DNA of 59,669 bases from IMG/VR virus record IMGVR_UViG_3300030389_003133, positions 1 through 59,669 of that record, one strand, 5' to 3'. Of this stretch, positions 21,664 through 50,389 are shown piece after piece; the first letter of the stretch is position 1; each line of letters starts with the position of its first letter. The notes beneath the pieces are model-generated. The model had not been told where the DNA came from, searched no databases, and saw nothing but the letters and a program-made list of their open reading frames with translations. The position numbers and the translations under genes were made by a program. The stretch comes from a virus. Taxonomy: Duplodnaviria; Caudoviricetes.

Positions 21664-21705
21664 AAAAAAAAGGAGGTGGTGTCTTTAAAGACACCACTCC
21701 TCTTT
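21664..21705 (-). terminator. Terminator after the capsid gene, built around a perfect 16-bp palindrome (21679-21694)
   Basis: AGGAG-GTGGTGTCTTT/AAAGACACCAC-TCCT inverted repeat followed by U8 on the minus strand. Confidence 0.8.
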
Positions 21706-38929: not shown

Positions 38930-39038
38930 CTTTATTTAATTTTTCGTTTTTAAGTTTTGTTTTTTCTCGTACAGATTTATTTGGAAATATTTTATCTATA
39001 TATTTTTTCATTCCGTCTGTATGTTCTCTTTGTCTCAT
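38916..39038 (-). CDS. Small hypothetical protein (40 aa)
   Basis: TAATG-coupled to the groEL stop; MRQREHTDGMKKY... Confidence 0.45.
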   Translation of the reverse strand: MRQREHTDGMKKYIDKIFPNKSVREKTKLKNEKLNKDGNK

Positions 39039-40648
39039 TATGCTGAGGTTTCATAACTACGTGCCATAGTAACTATAGCATTAGTTGATAAAATAGTAAC
39101 GGCTACCGATACTGCATTTTGTAAAGCCTGTCTTGTAACTTTTACAGGGTCTATTACTCCAAGAGTCATTAGATAACCATACTTTTCTTTTTTTACATCA
39201 TAACCATAATTAGCACCTTTGCTATTTTTATAAATCTCTTTTAGTTCTAATCCTGCGTTTACTAATATCTGATTCATTGGTGCTGACAATGATTCAGCTA
39301 AAATTGCATAAGCAATTTTTTTTGAAAAATTTTCTTCACTGTTTTCCTGAACCGCACAAGACTTGGCATGATTATATAACGCTAGTCCTCCGCCCGGTAG
39401 TATGCCTTCTTCAAGAGCACTACGTACGGCACACACCGCATCGTCTACTCTATCAAACAATTCTTTTTGTTCTAAGTCTGTATTACCACCAACATATACA
39501 ACACCTATACCTCCGGTTAGCGAAGCTATCCTTTGGTTTATAAAATCTTTATCTTGTTTCTTTGTGGCTTCTTCATACGCCTCATGTAGTTGTGCAACTC
39601 TTTCTTCAACTTCTTCATTGGATGAATCTTCATCTTTCACGATGACTGTTGAGTCACGGCTAACTATCACCTTAGCACAATGACCCAAATCGTTGAAACT
39701 AATCAAACTCAAATCATCGCCTGTCTTTTCGCTAAAGTAAGTTGCACCTATGCTTATTGCAATATCCTGCATTAACTCGTGTTGTCTGTATCCAAAGTCC
39801 GGCGGGACTATGTTACATATCTTTAAACCATTCTTTATTACATTAGCTGCTAAAGTATTTATAACGTTTGTAGAGCACGGAGCTATAATCAAAAGTTTCT
39901 TGCCTTCTGATATTATTGGTTTTAATATATTTTCTATTTGGAGTATGTTGCTTATCTCTCCATCACAAACTAATACGTATGTGTCTTCAAAGACACACTC
40001 ATCTCTCTTTTGGTCATTGATAAATAAGCCTGAAGAATATCCTCTTTTAATTTTTATTCCTTTAGTAGTTTCATAATATGTAGATGAGGTTTTACTTTTT
40101 TCTACTGTGACTACTCCATCCTTACCTACGCTTTCGTAAACGTCCGCAATAATTCCACCAACTTTTTTATCGTTGTTGGCTGATATAATGGCAACGTCCC
40201 GTAATCTTTTTTCGTCTAGCTTCTTGCCTTTTACTTTGAGAGACTTTGAAATTAATTTCGTAATCTCTACCAAATGTCGCAAGACCTCCGTTCGATTTAC
40301 TTTCGAATCTATTAATTTTGTACCTGCATCTACTAATGCTTCTGCTAATACAATAGCAGTTGTCGTTCCATCACCTGCTGAGGTAGCAGTTCTATCTGCA
40401 GCTTCTTTCATCATTCTAACCGCAAGGTTTTCAACCGGGTCTAATAATGAAATTGACTTTGCTACAGTAACACCATCTTTAGTTACTGTTATACCATGTA
40501 AGTGTTCAGGGGATTCTATTAACACAGTGTTTCCTCGAGGACCGAGGGTCGACTTCACTGCGTTAGCGATTTGCTTAATTCCTTTGATTAGTTTTTCTCT
40601 GCCTTCATTATTGAAATGAAGTTCTTTAGGATTGAAACCTTTCTGCAT
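39038..40648 (-). CDS. groEL: Phage chaperonin GroEL (536 aa)
   Basis: TLGPRG, TKDGVTVAK, AGDGTTTA, GILPGGG and GVIDPVKV motifs; lacks the GGM tail. Confidence 0.95.
   Translation of the reverse strand: MQKGFNPKELHFNNEGREKLIKGIKQIANAVKSTLGPRGNTVLIESPEHLHGITVTKDGVTVAKSISLLDPVENLAVRMMKEAADRTATSAGDGTTTAIVLAEALVDAGTKLIDSKVNRTEVLRHLVEITKLISKSLKVKGKKLDEKRLRDVAIISANNDKKVGGIIADVYESVGKDGVVTVEKSKTSSTYYETTKGIKIKRGYSSGLFINDQKRDECVFEDTYVLVCDGEISNILQIENILKPIISEGKKLLIIAPCSTNVINTLAANVIKNGLKICNIVPPDFGYRQHELMQDIAISIGATYFSEKTGDDLSLISFNDLGHCAKVIVSRDSTVIVKDEDSSNEEVEERVAQLHEAYEEATKKQDKDFINQRIASLTGGIGVVYVGGNTDLEQKELFDRVDDAVCAVRSALEEGILPGGGLALYNHAKSCAVQENSEENFSKKIAYAILAESLSAPMNQILVNAGLELKEIYKNSKGANYGYDVKKEKYGYLMTLGVIDPVKVTRQALQNAVSVAVTILSTNAIVTMARSYETSA
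39981..39996. repeat. 16-bp palindrome copy (GTGTCTTCAAAGACAC), intragenic
   Basis: Reads VFEDT in GroEL. Confidence 0.9.
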
Positions 40649-41445: not shown

Positions 41446-41467
41446 ATTACGTTTTGAAAGTATGTTT

Positions 41468-41483
41468 GTGTCTTTAAAGACAC
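41468..41483. repeat. Perfect 16-bp palindrome, intergenic
   Basis: GTGTCTTTAAAGACAC upstream of the early promoter. Confidence 0.95.
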
Positions 41484-42361: not shown

Positions 42362-43393
42362 ATGAGAAATTTATTAAACAACGGGGTTAAATTCGAAACT
42401 CTAAACGATAACACAAGACGTGGCGAAATTGTCAGTTATCACTGTAAGCCAAACCCCATTGACCGCTCAAAAGCGGAACAAGTCGACATCAACGGTTTAA
42501 AACCCGTCGACCGTCAGAACGTCAAAATTGACGGGGACGAGTTCGAGAGCCGTTTCAAAATTGGTATGGAGTTCGAAAAGAACCGTTTGAATCGTGGTGC
42601 CGTCCAAGAGTACCCGTTATTCTGTGGGTTCGAGAGAGACAGTTCCTGCGGTTTTAGGTCAGGTCAGGGGGGCTATGAAGCGGTAACCCATATAATACCG
42701 CTTATCGGTCCTAGTATGTGGCGAACAAAGGTCTTTAATATGTTCCACGAAGCACGAAAAATAATCGATGATAATTACAGTCCGTCAAACAGTCGTTGCG
42801 GTGGTCATATTACTTTATCGGTTGACGGTATGAGCGGTGCGGACCTGATGCAAAAAGTGAGAAAATTTTCTCCCGTTATACTTGCTATCTTTAGACACCG
42901 CCTGAATAACGGTTATTGTATGGGTAACCCTCAAATGTTGCCTAGTGTATACGACGGGGTCAATTCAAGCCGTTACGACGGCTCCCGTAAGTACGTCGTT
43001 TGTAAGGATACGGGGTTCGGTATCGAGTTCCGTTTGCCGTCCCGTTTCACGTCTGTGAAGCAAACAATAAGACGATACGAGATAATGTATCACCTCTTAG
43101 ATTTTTCGGTCAACAAACCTAATGCGACCTTGCACAAGTTCCATAACACGTTGAAACCTATTTTAATTTCAATGTACGACGGGAATATTGACAAAGTTGA
43201 TGCGGTCATAGATTTGGCGAAGCACTTCGCCAAGTTTATGGAAACGGGCAAAGTGAATCAACACACCGCCCCATGGCTAGAGGGTTGGTGGTCACGACGT
43301 AACCGAGCCTTTGGGTCTTATAGAAGTTGCTATCAAAGAAACTTCAGACCCGACCAAGACACCGTTTTAGAATGGTTGAGGGTTAACGGTTGA
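42362..43393 (+). CDS. Putative amidoligase (COOH-NH2 ligase, glutamine-synthetase-like fold; 343 aa)
   Basis: IGMEFE, ERDSS, GYEAVT, CGGHIT and IEFRLP motifs in the expected order. Confidence 0.7.
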   Translation: MRNLLNNGVKFETLNDNTRRGEIVSYHCKPNPIDRSKAEQVDINGLKPVDRQNVKIDGDEFESRFKIGMEFEKNRLNRGAVQEYPLFCGFERDSSCGFRSGQGGYEAVTHIIPLIGPSMWRTKVFNMFHEARKIIDDNYSPSNSRCGGHITLSVDGMSGADLMQKVRKFSPVILAIFRHRLNNGYCMGNPQMLPSVYDGVNSSRYDGSRKYVVCKDTGFGIEFRLPSRFTSVKQTIRRYEIMYHLLDFSVNKPNATLHKFHNTLKPILISMYDGNIDKVDAVIDLAKHFAKFMETGKVNQHTAPWLEGWWSRRNRAFGSYRSCYQRNFRPDQDTVLEWLRVNG

Positions 43394-43406
43394 CACCGAC
43401 ACCAAC

Positions 43407-43433
43407 GGACCTTAGCACGTCCCTAAACTGCTA
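43407..43433 (+). ncRNA. H-type pseudoknot candidate upstream of hammerhead 1
   Basis: Stem 1 GGAC(43407-10)/GUCC(43419-22); stem 2 UAGCA(43413-17)/UGCUA(43429-33). Confidence 0.6.
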
Positions 43434-43484
43434 CCGTCGGCGGATGTGTATTCGCCCTGATGAGTTCGAAAGAACGAAACGGTA
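43432..43484 (+). ncRNA. Type III hammerhead ribozyme 1 (cleavage after GUC, C43438)
   Basis: Stem III UACCGU/ACGGUA; stem I GGCGGA/UUCGCC with loop UGUGUA; core CUGAUGA; stem II GUUC-GAAA-GAAC; core GAAA. Confidence 0.93.
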
Positions 43485-43507
43485 ATTTTAATTTAATACT
43501 TATAAAA

Positions 43508-43729
43508 ATGAAAACTTTAAACATTATTCAAAATTCAATCTTAACAATCGTTACACTGTTTGTAATTTCTACATCAATGCGTATACTTTGGCACGTCATC
43601 ACAACCGACGGGGTCGGGGTATCGTGGGCATCTGTAGGGGTCGGGTTATTGTTGGGGTCGTTCCTTGCCTTTCTATGTGGAATGGTCATCACGTTGGTGG
43701 TCAACCTATGGAAAGAAACAATAGCATAG
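43508..43729 (+). CDS. Small two-TM membrane protein (73 aa) flanked by two hammerheads
   Basis: ATG at 43508 after an AU-rich leader; two hydrophobic helices. Confidence 0.7.
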   Translation: MKTLNIIQNSILTIVTLFVISTSMRILWHVITTDGVGVSWASVGVGLLLGSFLAFLCGMVITLVVNLWKETIA

Positions 43730-43746
43730 GCAGAGTCTAAGGGGTT

Positions 43747-43762
43747 GTGTCTTTAAAGACAC
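43747..43762. repeat. Perfect 16-bp palindrome in an extended hairpin, directly 5' of hammerhead 2
   Basis: GGGGTT-GTGTCTTTAAAGACAC-CGCCCC. Confidence 0.95.
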
Positions 43763-43768
43763 CGCCCC

Positions 43769-43817
43769 CCGTAACGGGATGAGTGTCCCGTCTGATGATT
43801 CCAAAAGGATGAAACGG
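43769..43817 (+). ncRNA. Type III hammerhead ribozyme 2 (cleavage after GUA, A43773)
   Basis: Stem III CCGU/ACGG; stem I ACGGGA/UCCCGU with loop UGAGUG; CUGAUGA; stem II U-UCC-AAAA-GGA-U; GAAA. Confidence 0.87.
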
Positions 43818-43836
43818 TAACTTAAAATTTAATAAA

Positions 43837-43974
43837 ATGAAACTAGAAAACTTTAAATGGACAGACGAACTTGTAATGCGATTTGATGGTACATTATTTA
43901 CCTTCGGTCAAAGTAAAGAAAGTAAGATAAAAGAGTTCAAAGAAATGATAATTAATGAATTAAACAATCAATAA
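43837..43974 (+). CDS. Small hypothetical protein (45 aa)
   Basis: Hand translation MKLENFKWTDELVMRF...; 19 nt after hammerhead 2. Confidence 0.65.
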   Translation: MKLENFKWTDELVMRFDGTLFTFGQSKESKIKEFKEMIINELNNQ

Positions 43975-43975
43975 T

Positions 43976-44161
43976 ATGTATACAGTAGTAGGACCGTGGT
44001 CCAATGAAAAAACCACACAATGTGTAATTGAAAAGATACACAGTTGGAGTTATGAAACCAACAAAGGATACATTAACAAGAATTATTGTTATTGTAATGA
44101 AGCGACCGCAAAGGTTGGCGACACAATAAAAGTAAAGGAAAGATTTTTACAAAACTTTTAA
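43976..44161 (+). CDS. Hypothetical protein (61 aa)
   Basis: ORF track; tight packing. Confidence 0.6.
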   Translation: MYTVVGPWSNEKTTQCVIEKIHSWSYETNKGYINKNYCYCNEATAKVGDTIKVKERFLQNF

Positions 44162-44162
44162 T

Positions 44163-44336
44163 ATGGAAGCACTAAAGTCTTATACAATTTACTACAAAGG
44201 AAAGCCCGTCTCACGAGAGGCGGGTTATACCAAGTACCACGCCCTAGACAAGGCGTATACAAATTTGTCTCAAAAATACAAAGGTATCGAGAGAAAAAAC
44301 CTAGACACCAAAAAAAATAAATTTGGTTATGTCTAA
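44163..44336 (+). CDS. Small hypothetical protein (57 aa)
   Basis: Hand translation MEALKSYTIYYKGK...KFGYV. Confidence 0.6.
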   Translation: MEALKSYTIYYKGKPVSREAGYTKYHALDKAYTNLSQKYKGIERKNLDTKKNKFGYV

Positions 44337-44353
44337 ATTTTGTCGTATCTTTG
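44322..44353 (+). promoter_or_regulatory. Second early promoter, Bacteroidota consensus
   Basis: TTTG (44322)-20 nt-TATCTTTG (44346). Confidence 0.75.
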
Positions 44354-44373
44354 TTTAATATTAATCGAGTTCT

Positions 44374-44389
44374 GTGTCTTTTTAGGCAC
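44374..44389. repeat. Degenerate palindrome copy GTGTCTTTTTAGGCAC in a 5' leader
   Basis: Three mismatches; still pairs as GUGUCU/AGGCAC with a G-U wobble. Confidence 0.6.
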
Positions 44390-44408
44390 CGCTCACAAAT
44401 TTAATTTT

Positions 44409-45497
44409 ATGTGTATTATAATAATCAAACAGAAAAACAAAGTAGTACCACGTGAGGTACTCAAAACAAGTTCACGAATCAATCCACACGGGTTGGGTAT
44501 TGTTTGGCTTGACACGTTCGAGACTACATACCACAAGTCAAGAGAATACAAAGTATTGTATACCGACAGACCGTACATCGCTCACTTTAGATATGCTACA
44601 GTTGGGAAAGTTTGCAGAGCAAACACACACCCGTTTGTATGCGGACACAACAAACACGAGTTGCTTATGATGAACGGTACAGTTCACGGGTACGGCAACA
44701 AGAATATGACCGACACCGAGGACCTAGCAATCAAGTTAGGCAGGACACCACGTCACACGTGGAAACAATCCCTAGCCAAGTTTGATGCTCGATTCGTAGC
44801 AATTAACACACGCACACGGTCGTTTCAAATCTTTAACAAGCACCTCTATACATTGAGAGACGGGGTTTGGTATTCAAAGACCAACGTCCTACAAGATAAC
44901 CTCATTGCGGTCTATGGCACATTGCGTAAGGGTAACGGTAACTATTACCGTTACTTGCGTAATGCAAAGCACTTAGGAACGGGAAAGACCAAGTACAAAT
45001 ACCCTATGGTTTCAAACGGTATACCGTACGTCATTCCCGAAAAGGGAAAGGGTCACAACGTAGTTGTTGACGTGTTCAAAGTCAGCGACACCACGTTGCA
45101 GAGAGTGGACAGTTTGGAAGGTCATCCCAAGTGGTACAAGCGAAAGCAGATACTTGTCAAAGTCAATGGCAAGGAGTACCCTTGTTGGTTGTATTTCAAC
45201 GAGGGAGCGAAAACTCAGTGGAACGGGTCAAACCACATCGCCGACTTTAACAACAGACCCAAGCCCAAGTTTACATTTACGAGGCACCCCGAGGCAGATG
45301 CTGAGGACGTGTTCAAGTTTGAGGACTCGCCTGAGTGTACTCAAATAGATATGTATAACGAGTTCGACCGCAGTAAAGAAAAACCGATTTGTATTGACTG
45401 TTATCACGACCTTGAGTTCGACGGGTTTGCTAACTATCATTGCAACGGTTGTGACGGTTGGTTCACGGAAGAAGAAGTGTTACGGTTCCAAGACTAA
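44409..45497 (+). CDS. Class II glutamine amidotransferase + gamma-glutamylcyclotransferase (AIG2-like) + Zn-ribbon fusion (362 aa)
   Basis: Met-Cys N-terminal nucleophile, NPHGLG, HFRYATVG, NTHPF, NG; then AVYGTLRKG and LEGHPKWYKR; C-terminal CxxC...CxxC. Confidence 0.82.
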   Translation: MCIIIIKQKNKVVPREVLKTSSRINPHGLGIVWLDTFETTYHKSREYKVLYTDRPYIAHFRYATVGKVCRANTHPFVCGHNKHELLMMNGTVHGYGNKNMTDTEDLAIKLGRTPRHTWKQSLAKFDARFVAINTRTRSFQIFNKHLYTLRDGVWYSKTNVLQDNLIAVYGTLRKGNGNYYRYLRNAKHLGTGKTKYKYPMVSNGIPYVIPEKGKGHNVVVDVFKVSDTTLQRVDSLEGHPKWYKRKQILVKVNGKEYPCWLYFNEGAKTQWNGSNHIADFNNRPKPKFTFTRHPEADAEDVFKFEDSPECTQIDMYNEFDRSKEKPICIDCYHDLEFDGFANYHCNGCDGWFTEEEVLRFQD

Positions 45498-45510
45498 CCT
45501 AAGTAAGCTC

Positions 45511-45526
45511 GTGTCTTCAAAGACAC
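45511..45526. repeat. 16-bp palindrome copy in an extended hairpin, directly 5' of hammerhead 3
   Basis: AGCTC-GTGTCTTCAAAGACAC-GGGCT. Confidence 0.92.
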
Positions 45527-45530
45527 GGGC

Positions 45531-45583
45531 TACTGTTCAGGAATGTGTGTTCCTGCTGATGAAGTCAAAAGACAGAAACAGTA
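45531..45583 (+). ncRNA. Type III hammerhead ribozyme 3 (cleavage after GUU, U45537)
   Basis: Stem III UACUGU/ACAGUA; stem I CAGGAA/UUCCUG with loop UGUGUG; CUGAUGA; stem II A-GUC-AAAA-GAC-A; GAAA. Confidence 0.87.
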
Positions 45584-45600
45584 ACTTTAAATTTAATAAA

Positions 45601-45942
45601 ATGAATATAGACTTAACACATTTGTCAGAACGAAAGGTCGGACAAAGACAAACAGAAAAAACTATATACCACAATCCACGAACTAACTTGTTTGGATTTA
45701 GCGGAGACGGTATTGGTTTTGTGAAGTACGTAAAGAGCCGTGGCGAAATTCAAAAACGTCAGAACGGATTTACGAAATGGTACCACGGGTCGAGCAATAC
45801 TTTAGTGGAAGCGGTCCGCAACATACGTAAGTGGTACGGCTTGAACGTATCGCCAAGTGGTTGGAACAAGTACCGAGTGAAGTACAGAAACTTAGAGACC
45901 AACGAATTAATTAAAACTTTGTATAACGAAATAAATAAATAA
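45601..45942 (+). CDS. Hypothetical early protein (113 aa)
   Basis: ATG at 45601 after an AU-rich leader, 17 nt past hammerhead 3. Confidence 0.7.
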   Translation: MNIDLTHLSERKVGQRQTEKTIYHNPRTNLFGFSGDGIGFVKYVKSRGEIQKRQNGFTKWYHGSSNTLVEAVRNIRKWYGLNVSPSGWNKYRVKYRNLETNELIKTLYNEINK

Positions 45943-45946
45943 TCAA

Positions 45947-46261
45947 ATGGAAATCGACAGAATAAAATTAGACTTAATGCACGAAGTATTAGACGAGTGC
46001 GAGAATCTACTAAAAACAGAATATAAAGATTCAGACTTCGAAATTTACGGGCTACCTTATGTGAAGCAAGTTATAGGCTTAGTGAGACAAGGAGAGATGA
46101 TACCCCTAGAGCGAATCAAAAGAATCGCAGAGGACATCAAACAAGACGACGAATGGGTAAACGATAGCCACACGTGGAGAGAACATCACGGAATAAACGT
46201 AGGACTTAATACGTTACTCAGACATTTAGAGCAAACAAAAAACATTAACTTAATAAAATAG
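45947..46261 (+). CDS. Hypothetical protein (104 aa)
   Basis: ORF track. Confidence 0.7.
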   Translation: MEIDRIKLDLMHEVLDECENLLKTEYKDSDFEIYGLPYVKQVIGLVRQGEMIPLERIKRIAEDIKQDDEWVNDSHTWREHHGINVGLNTLLRHLEQTKNINLIK

Positions 46262-46263
46262 AT

Positions 46264-46578
46264 ATGGCAATTTATATAACAAAAAAAGATAAGTTCGTTT
46301 GGTTGGACGTTACCGACGCAATGAAATACGGAAAAAAGAAACGTGATGAGATATGGTTAGGTCACGAACTTTATGCAATACACGACGACGACTCAGACAG
46401 TTTGATTGAGTCACACGAGGAGATAGATGAAGCCCTAGAGTTGGGGCTTCGTATCTGTATTGAAGGCGGATACTTGCCGAAGCAATATCACCCACGTAAT
46501 AGTTGGGATGGCACAAGTAAAAAATTGATAGACGGATATTGGTACGTAAAATTAGCAGACCTAAAACTTGCAAAGTAA
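46264..46578 (+). CDS. Hypothetical protein (104 aa)
   Basis: ORF track. Confidence 0.7.
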   Translation: MAIYITKKDKFVWLDVTDAMKYGKKKRDEIWLGHELYAIHDDDSDSLIESHEEIDEALELGLRICIEGGYLPKQYHPRNSWDGTSKKLIDGYWYVKLADLKLAK

Positions 46579-50343: not shown

Positions 50344-50364
50344 TTTAGAGTTATTCATTTTCAG

Positions 50365-50389
50365 GGGGGATGAAAGTCCCCCTTTTTTT
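50365..50389 (+). terminator. Rho-independent terminator
   Basis: GGGGGAU-GAAA-GUCCCCC followed by U7. Confidence 0.85.

Follow-up and report, generated by a model that had tools for sequence, protein, structure and literature searches.

In the early mRNA of phage T7 the host RNase III cuts between cistrons, inside a hairpin, and the upstream messages keep a 3′ hairpin. A division of transcripts by the RNA itself has been considered for hammerhead ribozymes: main-text passages of Perreault et al. 2011 (PMC3088659) describe multiple hammerheads with weak stems III that flank genes in prophages and phages, and propose that long phage transcripts are processed into gene-length mRNAs. In the haloviruses HF1 and HF2, taken up in the discussion of that paper, the HHphage ribozyme lies 13 nt upstream of the first gene start in an early polycistronic transcript, and a 5′ end has been mapped no more than 3 nt from the cleavage site. 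A passage of a 2019 review (PMC6765202) likewise states that bacterial and phage hammerheads may process polycistronic transcripts and calls for more work. Repeated cassettes are also described, in passages on the PeSL elements of T4-type phages, as a stem-loop with an early promoter that borders variable small genes (PMC2839356, PMC4122927). Here we describe a module of hairpin and hammerhead in IMG/VR virus record IMGVR_UViG_3300030389_003133, a complete virus record of 59,669 bp with a G+C content of ∼35%, the whole of which (hereafter, the window) was analysed. Three hammerhead motifs, HH1 to HH3, stand between early genes of its plus strand. We propose that they are active-type type III ribozymes, predicted to self-cleave, and that they would provide a host-independent form of intercistronic self-processing that leaves hairpin-capped 3′ ends; judged from sequence, this joint reading has a probability of roughly 60%.

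Results

Three type III hammerheads in the window

The core pattern CTGATGA-N6-30-GAAAC has three matches in the window, all on the plus strand, compared with 0.23 expected, and three were reached in 0/100 shuffles. These correspond to exactly three type III hammerheads, HH1 (43431-43485, +), HH2 (43766-43820, +) and HH3 (45530-45584, +). Each has the three-helix topology of type III, with stems I and II closed by loops and stem III open, and this topology is backed by covariation. The core nucleotides C3-U4-G5-A6-N7-G8-A9 and G12-A13-A14 are present in all three, with CUGAUGA and GAAA in register, as are the A15.1-U16.1 pair and an N17 other than G. The ortholog of HH1 in the closest relative of the window (locus L003, 82-89% DNA identity) is conserved, with N7 = A. 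Cleavage triplets GUC, GUA and GUU are found at 43436-43438, 43771-43773 and 45535-45537, and the cuts predicted from the sequence are after C43438 in HH1, A43773 in HH2 and U45537 in HH3. HH1 is near-canonical and is the only one with G10.1-C11.1 at the base of stem II, which is a usual, not an absolute, feature of hammerheads; HH2 has a U10.1-U11.1 mismatch and HH3 an A10.1-A11.1 mismatch. According to main-text passages of Perreault et al. 2011 (PMC3088659), the U10.1-U11.1 mismatch occurs naturally and supports activity, and the hammerhead of phage PaP3 is among the variants that self-cleave in vitro. Stem III of HH2 consists of 3 bp plus the A15.1-U16.1 pair.

A covariance model that we built on 47 relatives scores these three sites of the window, and no others, at 69-73 bits (HH1, 69.3; HH2, 73.3; HH3, 71.4), the next match scoring 13.5 bits; HH1-HH3 belonged to the seed of the model, so that their match is by construction. 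A scan of the whole window at Rfam gathering scores gave no match. In a permissive Rfam scan of 43300-45700, RF00008 (Hammerhead_3) was found for HH1 (46.7 bits) and HH2 (29.3 bits), compared with a cut-off of 48.5, and HH3 was not listed at E ≤ 10. A relaxed core, CTGANGA-N8-24-GAAA, gave six further matches in the window, which were rejected, none of them having a stem II hairpin.

The identity of N17 varies in step with the nucleotides at 10.1/11.1, the base of stem II, both in the window (43438/43799-43810, 43773 and 45537) and in loci L003-L156. Among 165 distinct type III sites, C17 occurs with G-C in 72/85 and A17 with U-U in 48/60, while U17 occurs with A-A in 10/20 and with U-U in 8/20; in the three commonest classes N17 is the Watson-Crick complement of N10.1. 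Among the matches listed in the independent broad set described below, the corresponding 2 × 2 table is 45/2/12/48 (Fisher p = 1.6e-16, kinship uncorrected). No description of this coupling was found in the searched literature.

Hairpins upstream of the hammerheads

A 16-nt palindrome, GTGTCTTNAAAGACAC, stands before both HH2 and HH3 (43747-43762 and 45511-45526, respectively), and each copy is extended by its flanks into a longer hairpin, termed P0. The P0 of HH2 (43741-43768, +) has the flanks GGGGUU and CGCCCC and starts 11 nt past the stop codon at 43727-43729; that of HH3 (45506-45531, +) has the flanks AGCUC and GGGCU and starts 8 nt past the stop of the gene for a GGACT-domain protein. 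In the minimum-free-energy folds of both modules P0 abuts stem III at a distance of 0 nt, with z = −4.19 for HH2 and −3.84 for HH3, values matched by 0/200 shuffles, which bears out the arrangement of palindrome, flanks and ribozyme given in a preliminary description of this DNA. That description had placed the repeated cassette at 43741-45600, a range that covers HH2 and HH3 and omits HH1, although HH1 was discussed in it. It had also supposed that the C-run of HH2 pairs either in the hairpin or in stem III, which is not what the fold indicates: four of the six Cs are in the hairpin and two in stem III and, because the minimum-free-energy fold forms both together, competition between them is not forced. 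As intrinsic terminators the P0 hairpins were rejected, since they have no T-run and neither 43741-43768 nor 45506-45531 was called terminator-like; a canonical terminator-like site was called at 50363-50384.

The structure upstream of HH1 (43407-43433, +) is weak and overlaps stem III by 2 nt. The pseudoknot previously assigned to this position is represented by two crossing pairings, GGAC 43407-43410 with GUCC 43419-43422 and UAGCA 43413-43417 with UGCUA 43429-43433, and the single ortholog of HH1, in L003, carries one compensatory change (AGAC:GUCU) in the pseudoknot pairing. Its folding is weak, however (5′ product, −7.5 kcal/mol; module, z = −1.61), and an H-type pseudoknot is a possibility rather than a demonstrated structure.

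Hammerheads in related loci

The relatives comprise 32 IMG/VR loci, retrieved at 50-91% identity with the GGACT protein as query. With the family model, 57 type III hammerheads were detected in related loci, all on the gene strand, and in 15 related loci one lies directly after the GGACT gene, at the position of HH3. A 12-kb stretch of the related record MW202828 (L002) contained no match to the hammerhead core. Adjacency was defined as a hairpin of −12 kcal/mol or better that ends no more than 8 nt before the cut. By this definition 47/57 distinct type III hammerheads of the window and the 32 loci are adjacent to a hairpin, compared with 374/5318 positions (7.0%) in non-hammerhead intergenic gaps of the same loci and 55/1650 random positions. 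The expectation, expressed in the preliminary description, that hairpin and hammerhead would also be neighbours in relatives is thus upheld and, because the adjacency is conserved, a hairpin-terminated 3′ end on the upstream fragment appears to be the conserved outcome. An independent scan of IMG/VR with a pattern for stem II and its loop yielded at least 116 further distinct type III sites in very different phages, many with GGAG ribosome sites. Among the matches listed in that scan, 60/116 sites have an adjacent hairpin, and unrelated phages use arbitrary hairpins upstream of their hammerheads.

In 47 distinct family sequences, 87.5% of the cells are paired compared with 67.4% in shuffles, a percentage inflated, as is that for type I below, by the choice of sites according to stem I pairing (the 100% of stem I is partly by construction). 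Double changes occur in 14/18 pairs, distributed as 6/7 in the 7-bp stem I, 3/4 in stem II and 5/7 in stem III. The sequence of the hairpin varies more widely. A GTGTC-N5-7-GACAC core ending no more than 16 nt from the cut is present at 31/57 sites, and the 26/57 without it use other hairpins; under a wider criterion (GTGTC-N4-8-GACAC anywhere in the final 45 nt of the 5′ product) the count is 35/57. The hairpins at the remaining sites are G+C-rich and unrelated to the palindrome.

The released stem III strand can itself pair with bases just 5′ of the hairpin in HH3, in HH1 and in many relatives, which would shorten the tail to 0-3 nt; in the 5′ product of HH3, for example, UACU of the stem III strand is able to pair with an AGUA further upstream. 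The mean extra stability from such capture is −2.45 kcal/mol, compared with −1.77 kcal/mol (s.d. 0.14) when tails are permuted, and 0/100 permutations reach it; a gain of −2 kcal/mol or better is found at 30/57 sites, compared with 18.4 on average and 25 at most for permuted tails. Since the enrichment is modest and relatedness is uncorrected, strand capture is kept as a lead only.

Twelve of the related loci also contain hammerheads of type I, 18 in all (16 distinct), in the same slots between stop codon and ATG. Here the long hairpin itself forms stem III, with at least 8 bp in 15/18 cases (8-13 bp), and in 11/18 it is the lineage's own palindrome: GTGTCTTCAAAGACAC in L004 and L009, GTCCGT-N4-ACGGAC in L015, L021 and L027, and GTGTACACATGTACAC in L022. 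The same phages have the same palindromes upstream of their type III hammerheads as well. Type I hammerheads are found, for example, at positions 1530 and 3260 in L015 (with L021 and L027), 1991 and 5071 in L022, and 3839 in L030-L032. Stems I and II covary, with 93.8% of cells paired compared with 67.3% in shuffles. Rfam at E ≤ 0.01 did not detect the type I hammerheads in four related loci, and the type I calls therefore rest on our own parse and the covariation count. The 5′ strand of stem I often holds the stop codon of the upstream gene, as in ...GGTTAA-CTGATGA. The downstream RNA of a type I element is left with a short unstructured leader. A structured 5′-OH end beside the ribosome site, which had been put forward as a product of the cassette, is thus not a conserved requirement; taking the two topologies together, the common denominator is a cut 2-8 nt 3′ of a strong hairpin, with the downstream 5′ end structured in type III and open in type I.

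Leaders and promoters

The modules occupy 103-114 nt between a stop codon and the next ATG. The three hammerheads of the window end 17-23 nt before an ATG, and most of the related ones 16-28 nt before it. The AT-rich leaders, each given here with its start codon, are at 43486-43510 for HH1 (ATG 43508, 23 nt from the end of stem III), 43821-43839 for HH2 (ATG 43837) and 45585-45603 for HH3 (ATG 45601), all on the plus strand. A similar leader had been reported to follow all three hammerheads. For HH2 and HH3 this is accurate (20/22 identical positions), whereas HH1 matches at only 13/22; the best leader without a hammerhead shares 16/22. A TTTAA/TTAAA-type AT-rich leader precedes 25/77 gene starts of the window, where the mean A+T content of positions −22 to −1 is 79%, and the leader was rejected as a cassette-specific element because the type is generic.

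TAnnTTTG motifs and AT-rich leaders without a Shine-Dalgarno sequence precede many of the minus-strand genes, a combination that we take to be the promoter and initiation style of Bacteroidota; a scan for sigma-70-type promoters is not relevant to such a host. No TAnnTTTG motif occurs between hairpin and ATG in any of the three modules, and for that reason transcription of the hammerheads would come about by read-through out of the gene before them. On the plus strand, candidate promoters lie at 41461, 41641 and 44346. The last of these, TATCTTTG with a degenerate palindrome copy at 44374-44389 (whole element 44346-44389, +), lies upstream of the GGACT gene and is internal, between HH2 and HH3; we presume its TAnnTTTG-type element to be a −7 promoter motif of the Bacteroidota type. 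The promoter-like motif TATGTTTG (41461-41483, +) overlaps the palindrome copy at 41468-41483 in a divergent control region. Two plus-strand TAnnTTTG motifs thus precede the palindrome, either at once (41468) or by 20 nt (44374, degenerate). In the relative L005, a conserved GAGTTC-palindrome-CGCTCACAA element upstream of the GGACT gene sits downstream of a hammerhead and not of a promoter.

Genes around the modules and the dispersed palindrome

The minus strand carries the genes of the window as far as ∼41.2 kb; between 41.7 and 57.1 kb they are encoded on the plus strand. HH1 is followed by a gene for a hydrophobic protein of 73 amino acids (43508-43729, +), HH2 by a gene for 45 amino acids (43837-43974, +) and HH3 by a gene for 113 amino acids (ATG 45601, +) that is absent from most relatives. 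The gene upstream of HH3 (44409-45497, +) encodes a protein with a GATase-like part and a GGACT (gamma-glutamyl cyclotransferase-like) domain (PF06094, 8.7e-22), the exception among ten proteins around the hammerheads, for nine of which Pfam and PHROGs gave no family. With the GGACT protein, tblastn found no cultured close relative, the best match with a named host showing 37% identity over a third of the protein. Proteins recognized in the window include a Cpn60 chaperonin, a primase-helicase-like protein, a PDDEXK nuclease, an SNF2/ResIII helicase and two DnaA-C helix-turn-helix proteins. The Cpn60/GroEL-type chaperonin gene lies at 39038-40648 (−; PF00118, 5.6e-57), and one is also annotated in the related record MW202828. 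Locus L009 has a tRNA gene (316-389, 70.2 bits) in its early region. Near-identical DNA is present in 20 sequencing runs from nine studies, all of DNA type and from marine, seawater or sponge metagenomes. The virus is a marine phage whose host is probably among the Bacteroidota.

The palindrome recurs outside the modules. Its 15 sites in the window, letter-perfect or nearly so compared with 2.65 expected, start at 2852, 9841, 21679, 28859, 39981, 41468, 42330, 43747, 44374, 45511, 47121, 48986, 49928, 53082 and 54316. Thirteen of them are far from any hammerhead and seven of those fall within coding regions, where they occupy different reading frames and lack complementary flanks, while the intergenic copies often have extended stems. 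The copy at 21679 resembles a true terminator with a T-run on the minus strand. Window and relatives together (314.5 kb) contain 131 copies, 31 next to a type III hammerhead and 100 not. This conservation at the level of sequence suggests a specific binding factor or a role at the DNA level.

Discussion

In order, the proposed module consists of the strong hairpin P0, a minimal stem III of 3-5 bp, the hammerhead and an AT-rich leader of ∼20 nt. From the observed motif, fold, covariation, conserved adjacency and placement relative to genes we infer cleavage in vivo, stacking of P0 on stem III, and effects on stability and translation. RNA polymerase would pass through P0, which has no U-tract, and the ribozyme would fold with P0 stacked end-on onto the short stem III. 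The RNA would then cut itself 5-7 nt beyond the hairpin and let go of the upstream mRNA, whose release should be fast and its re-ligation unlikely, because just 3-5 bp hold it. A hairpin, a very short tail and a 2′,3′-cyclic phosphate would make up the 3′ end of the upstream message, an end that should resist 3′ exonucleases; the downstream message would have its 5′-OH right at stem I, with an open AT-rich leader behind it. The early operon would in this way be punctuated into separate messages without a host RNase.

Several observations count against this proposal. HH1, HH2 and HH3 all fall under the curated gathering score of RF00008 (48.5 bits), which is an annotation threshold and not a biochemical criterion, and HH2 and HH3 have non-Watson-Crick pairs at 10.1/11.1. 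HH1 lacks a strong upstream hairpin and 10/57 related type III sites fail the hairpin threshold, so that a strong hairpin is not obligatory; conversely, a strong hairpin is present in 63/135 gaps that have no hammerhead. The counts come from related sequences and do not represent independent events, and the selection of sites by stem I pairing inflates the evidence from paired cells for both types. None of the 20 runs with near-identical DNA is an RNA run. The protection from exonucleases and the effects of a 5′-OH in Bacteroidota are assumed by analogy with other bacteria.

Other explanations of the module were also considered. Closest to our proposal, and compatible with it apart from the emphasis, is the idea that P0 is mainly a folding aid, a coaxial clamp for a stem III that is too short, with no role in mRNA stability. 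Stem III has only 3-6 bp across the family and the last pair of the hairpin lies 0 nt from stem III at 43/52 parsed sites, in agreement with the minimum-free-energy folds, although the folding was restricted to sequence upstream of stem III, which in part dictates this count. However, the type I stems III, at 8-13 bp, extend far beyond catalytic need, and HH1 and the 10/57 sites cope without a strong hairpin, and we regard a pure folding aid as unlikely. Decidedly unlikely is a composite device in which capture of the released stem III strand 5′ of the hairpin yields a near-blunt, exonuclease-proof and irreversible end and, in addition, a phage factor reads the lineage-specific palindrome, found also at promoters and within genes, and times both transcription and RNA processing of the early genes. 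The module might instead be chiefly a recombination linker that promotes gene shuffling at the borders of variable gene slots, as proposed for the PeSL cassettes of T4-type phages. In the comparison with L003, synteny breaks at 43840 and 45601, which coincide, to within a few nt, with the start codons behind the HH2 and HH3 leaders, and the segments 43840-43975 and 45601-46518 differ, the genes after HH3 being replaced. For the genes at 43837 (missing from L003) and 45601, most of the 11 relatives compared have hardly any counterpart or none, while the flanking genes are kept, and the 20/22 identity of the HH2 and HH3 leaders would also suit such a linker. Yet the breakpoints come from one close pair only, small early genes that do not adjoin hammerheads vary too (for example that at 43976), and a conserved catalytic core with covarying stems indicates selection on the RNA itself; this role is accordingly judged improbable.

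More improbable still is a gate in which a phage protein recognizes the palindrome, in its RNA hairpin or its DNA form, controls ribozyme folding and couples processing to a regulator, a link between the two systems that had been raised in the preliminary description and for which we obtained no direct support. Such a protein would account for the near-perfect 16-nt core at 15 sites, for the seven intragenic copies in different frames without flank complementarity, for the copy that overlaps a promoter-like motif, and for lineages with other palindromes (GTCCGT..ACGGAC or GTGTACACATGTACAC) that reuse them upstream of type III hammerheads and as type I stem III. On the other hand, 26/57 hammerheads have other hairpins in place of the palindrome beside the cut, 13/15 window copies and 100/131 copies overall are away from type III hammerheads, and the hairpins of unrelated phages are arbitrary; no binding protein was identified, and nothing ties the two DnaA-C helix-turn-helix proteins to the palindrome. 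It would be a considerable surprise if pairs of hammerheads served to excise RNA pieces, the candidates being a 335-nt piece with the 73-amino-acid gene (43439-43773) and a 1764-nt piece (43774-45537), for circularization by the reverse ribozyme reaction or an RNA ligase. Hammerhead products carry 5′-OH and 2′,3′-cyclic phosphate ends, chemistry that ligases use and that would suit this purpose. HH1 and HH2 moreover share the stem III core CCG/CGG, so that the 3′ end made by HH2 could engage the body of HH1, located at the 5′ end of that fragment. Against circles, a short stem III is unfavourable to ligation, no RNA-ligase family was found among the 30 window proteins scanned (part of the proteome), and spliced or circular products of clustered hammerheads were sought and not found according to main-text passages of Perreault et al. 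2011 (PMC3088659). Intercistronic self-processing with a hairpin-capped 3′ end remains the reading that we prefer.

The module is compact, it recurs, its borders are precise and the RNA ends that it should yield can be predicted exactly. It occurs naturally in two permutations, a type III element behind a hairpin or a type I element whose stem III is the hairpin, together with hairpin-less natural controls, and because these exist the question of stability versus folding is directly testable. Should it work as proposed, the module would be a host-independent counterpart of RNase III punctuation and a ready-made insulator part for the design of operons in Bacteroidota, in which, to our knowledge, initiation is not based on Shine-Dalgarno pairing.

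Among described hammerheads the nearest in sequence to HH2 is one upstream of orf01 in 65 Pseudomonas Bruynoghevirus records, which is 93.6% identical to it over 47 nt and is carried by PaP3. A nearly identical element is found at 1090-1140 of L001 (Pseudomonas phage phiIBB-PAA2) and in 70 other Pseudomonas phage records, with an unrelated host and ∼52% G+C, and the stem I of HH2 recurs in L075 and L095. The Bruynoghevirus element is, like HH2, of type III, with a GUA cut, the stem II UUCC-AAAA-GGAU and a stem that closes 1 nt before stem III. The Pseudomonas phages differ in having a single copy, ∼400-750 nt downstream of annotated early promoters, that ends at the orf01 ATG, with the AGGA of stem II placed like a Shine-Dalgarno sequence 8 nt before the ATG; the window has three intergenic copies, each with an AT-rich leader and no Shine-Dalgarno motif. 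Either horizontal transfer or one strongly preferred solution for stems I and II could explain the similarity. HHphage of HF1 and HF2 differs further, being a structurally variant, salt-dependent ribozyme of an archaeal virus, and the passage that describes it mentions no upstream hairpin.

In function the closest analogue is the RNase III punctuation of T7, a resemblance of function only and not of family: in the window the cut would be made in cis by a ribozyme a few nt past the hairpin, with predicted 2′,3′-cyclic phosphate and 5′-OH ends, rather than by a host enzyme inside the hairpin. In architecture it is the PeSL, as described in the passages cited above, which is likewise a short stem-loop cassette repeated at the borders of variable small genes; the window modules lack the promoter motif that is part of that cassette and have a ribozyme in its place. 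The searched literature, which included few subscription journals and no supplements, gave no description of a hairpin-hammerhead module in phages or of the palindrome reuse. The clusters of Perreault et al. 2011 (PMC3088659) resemble the window in having several closely spaced hammerheads on one strand, interspersed with single genes or short gene blocks, and the genes they flank are not constant; a hairpin abutting stem III, reuse of a palindrome and a fixed spacing of ∼20 nt to the start codon do not appear in the main-text passages of that paper. A hammerhead cluster is therefore already known, and what the present locus and its relatives add is the obligate-looking hairpin immediately 5′ of the cut, its occurrence in two topologies and its formation from lineage-specific palindromes.

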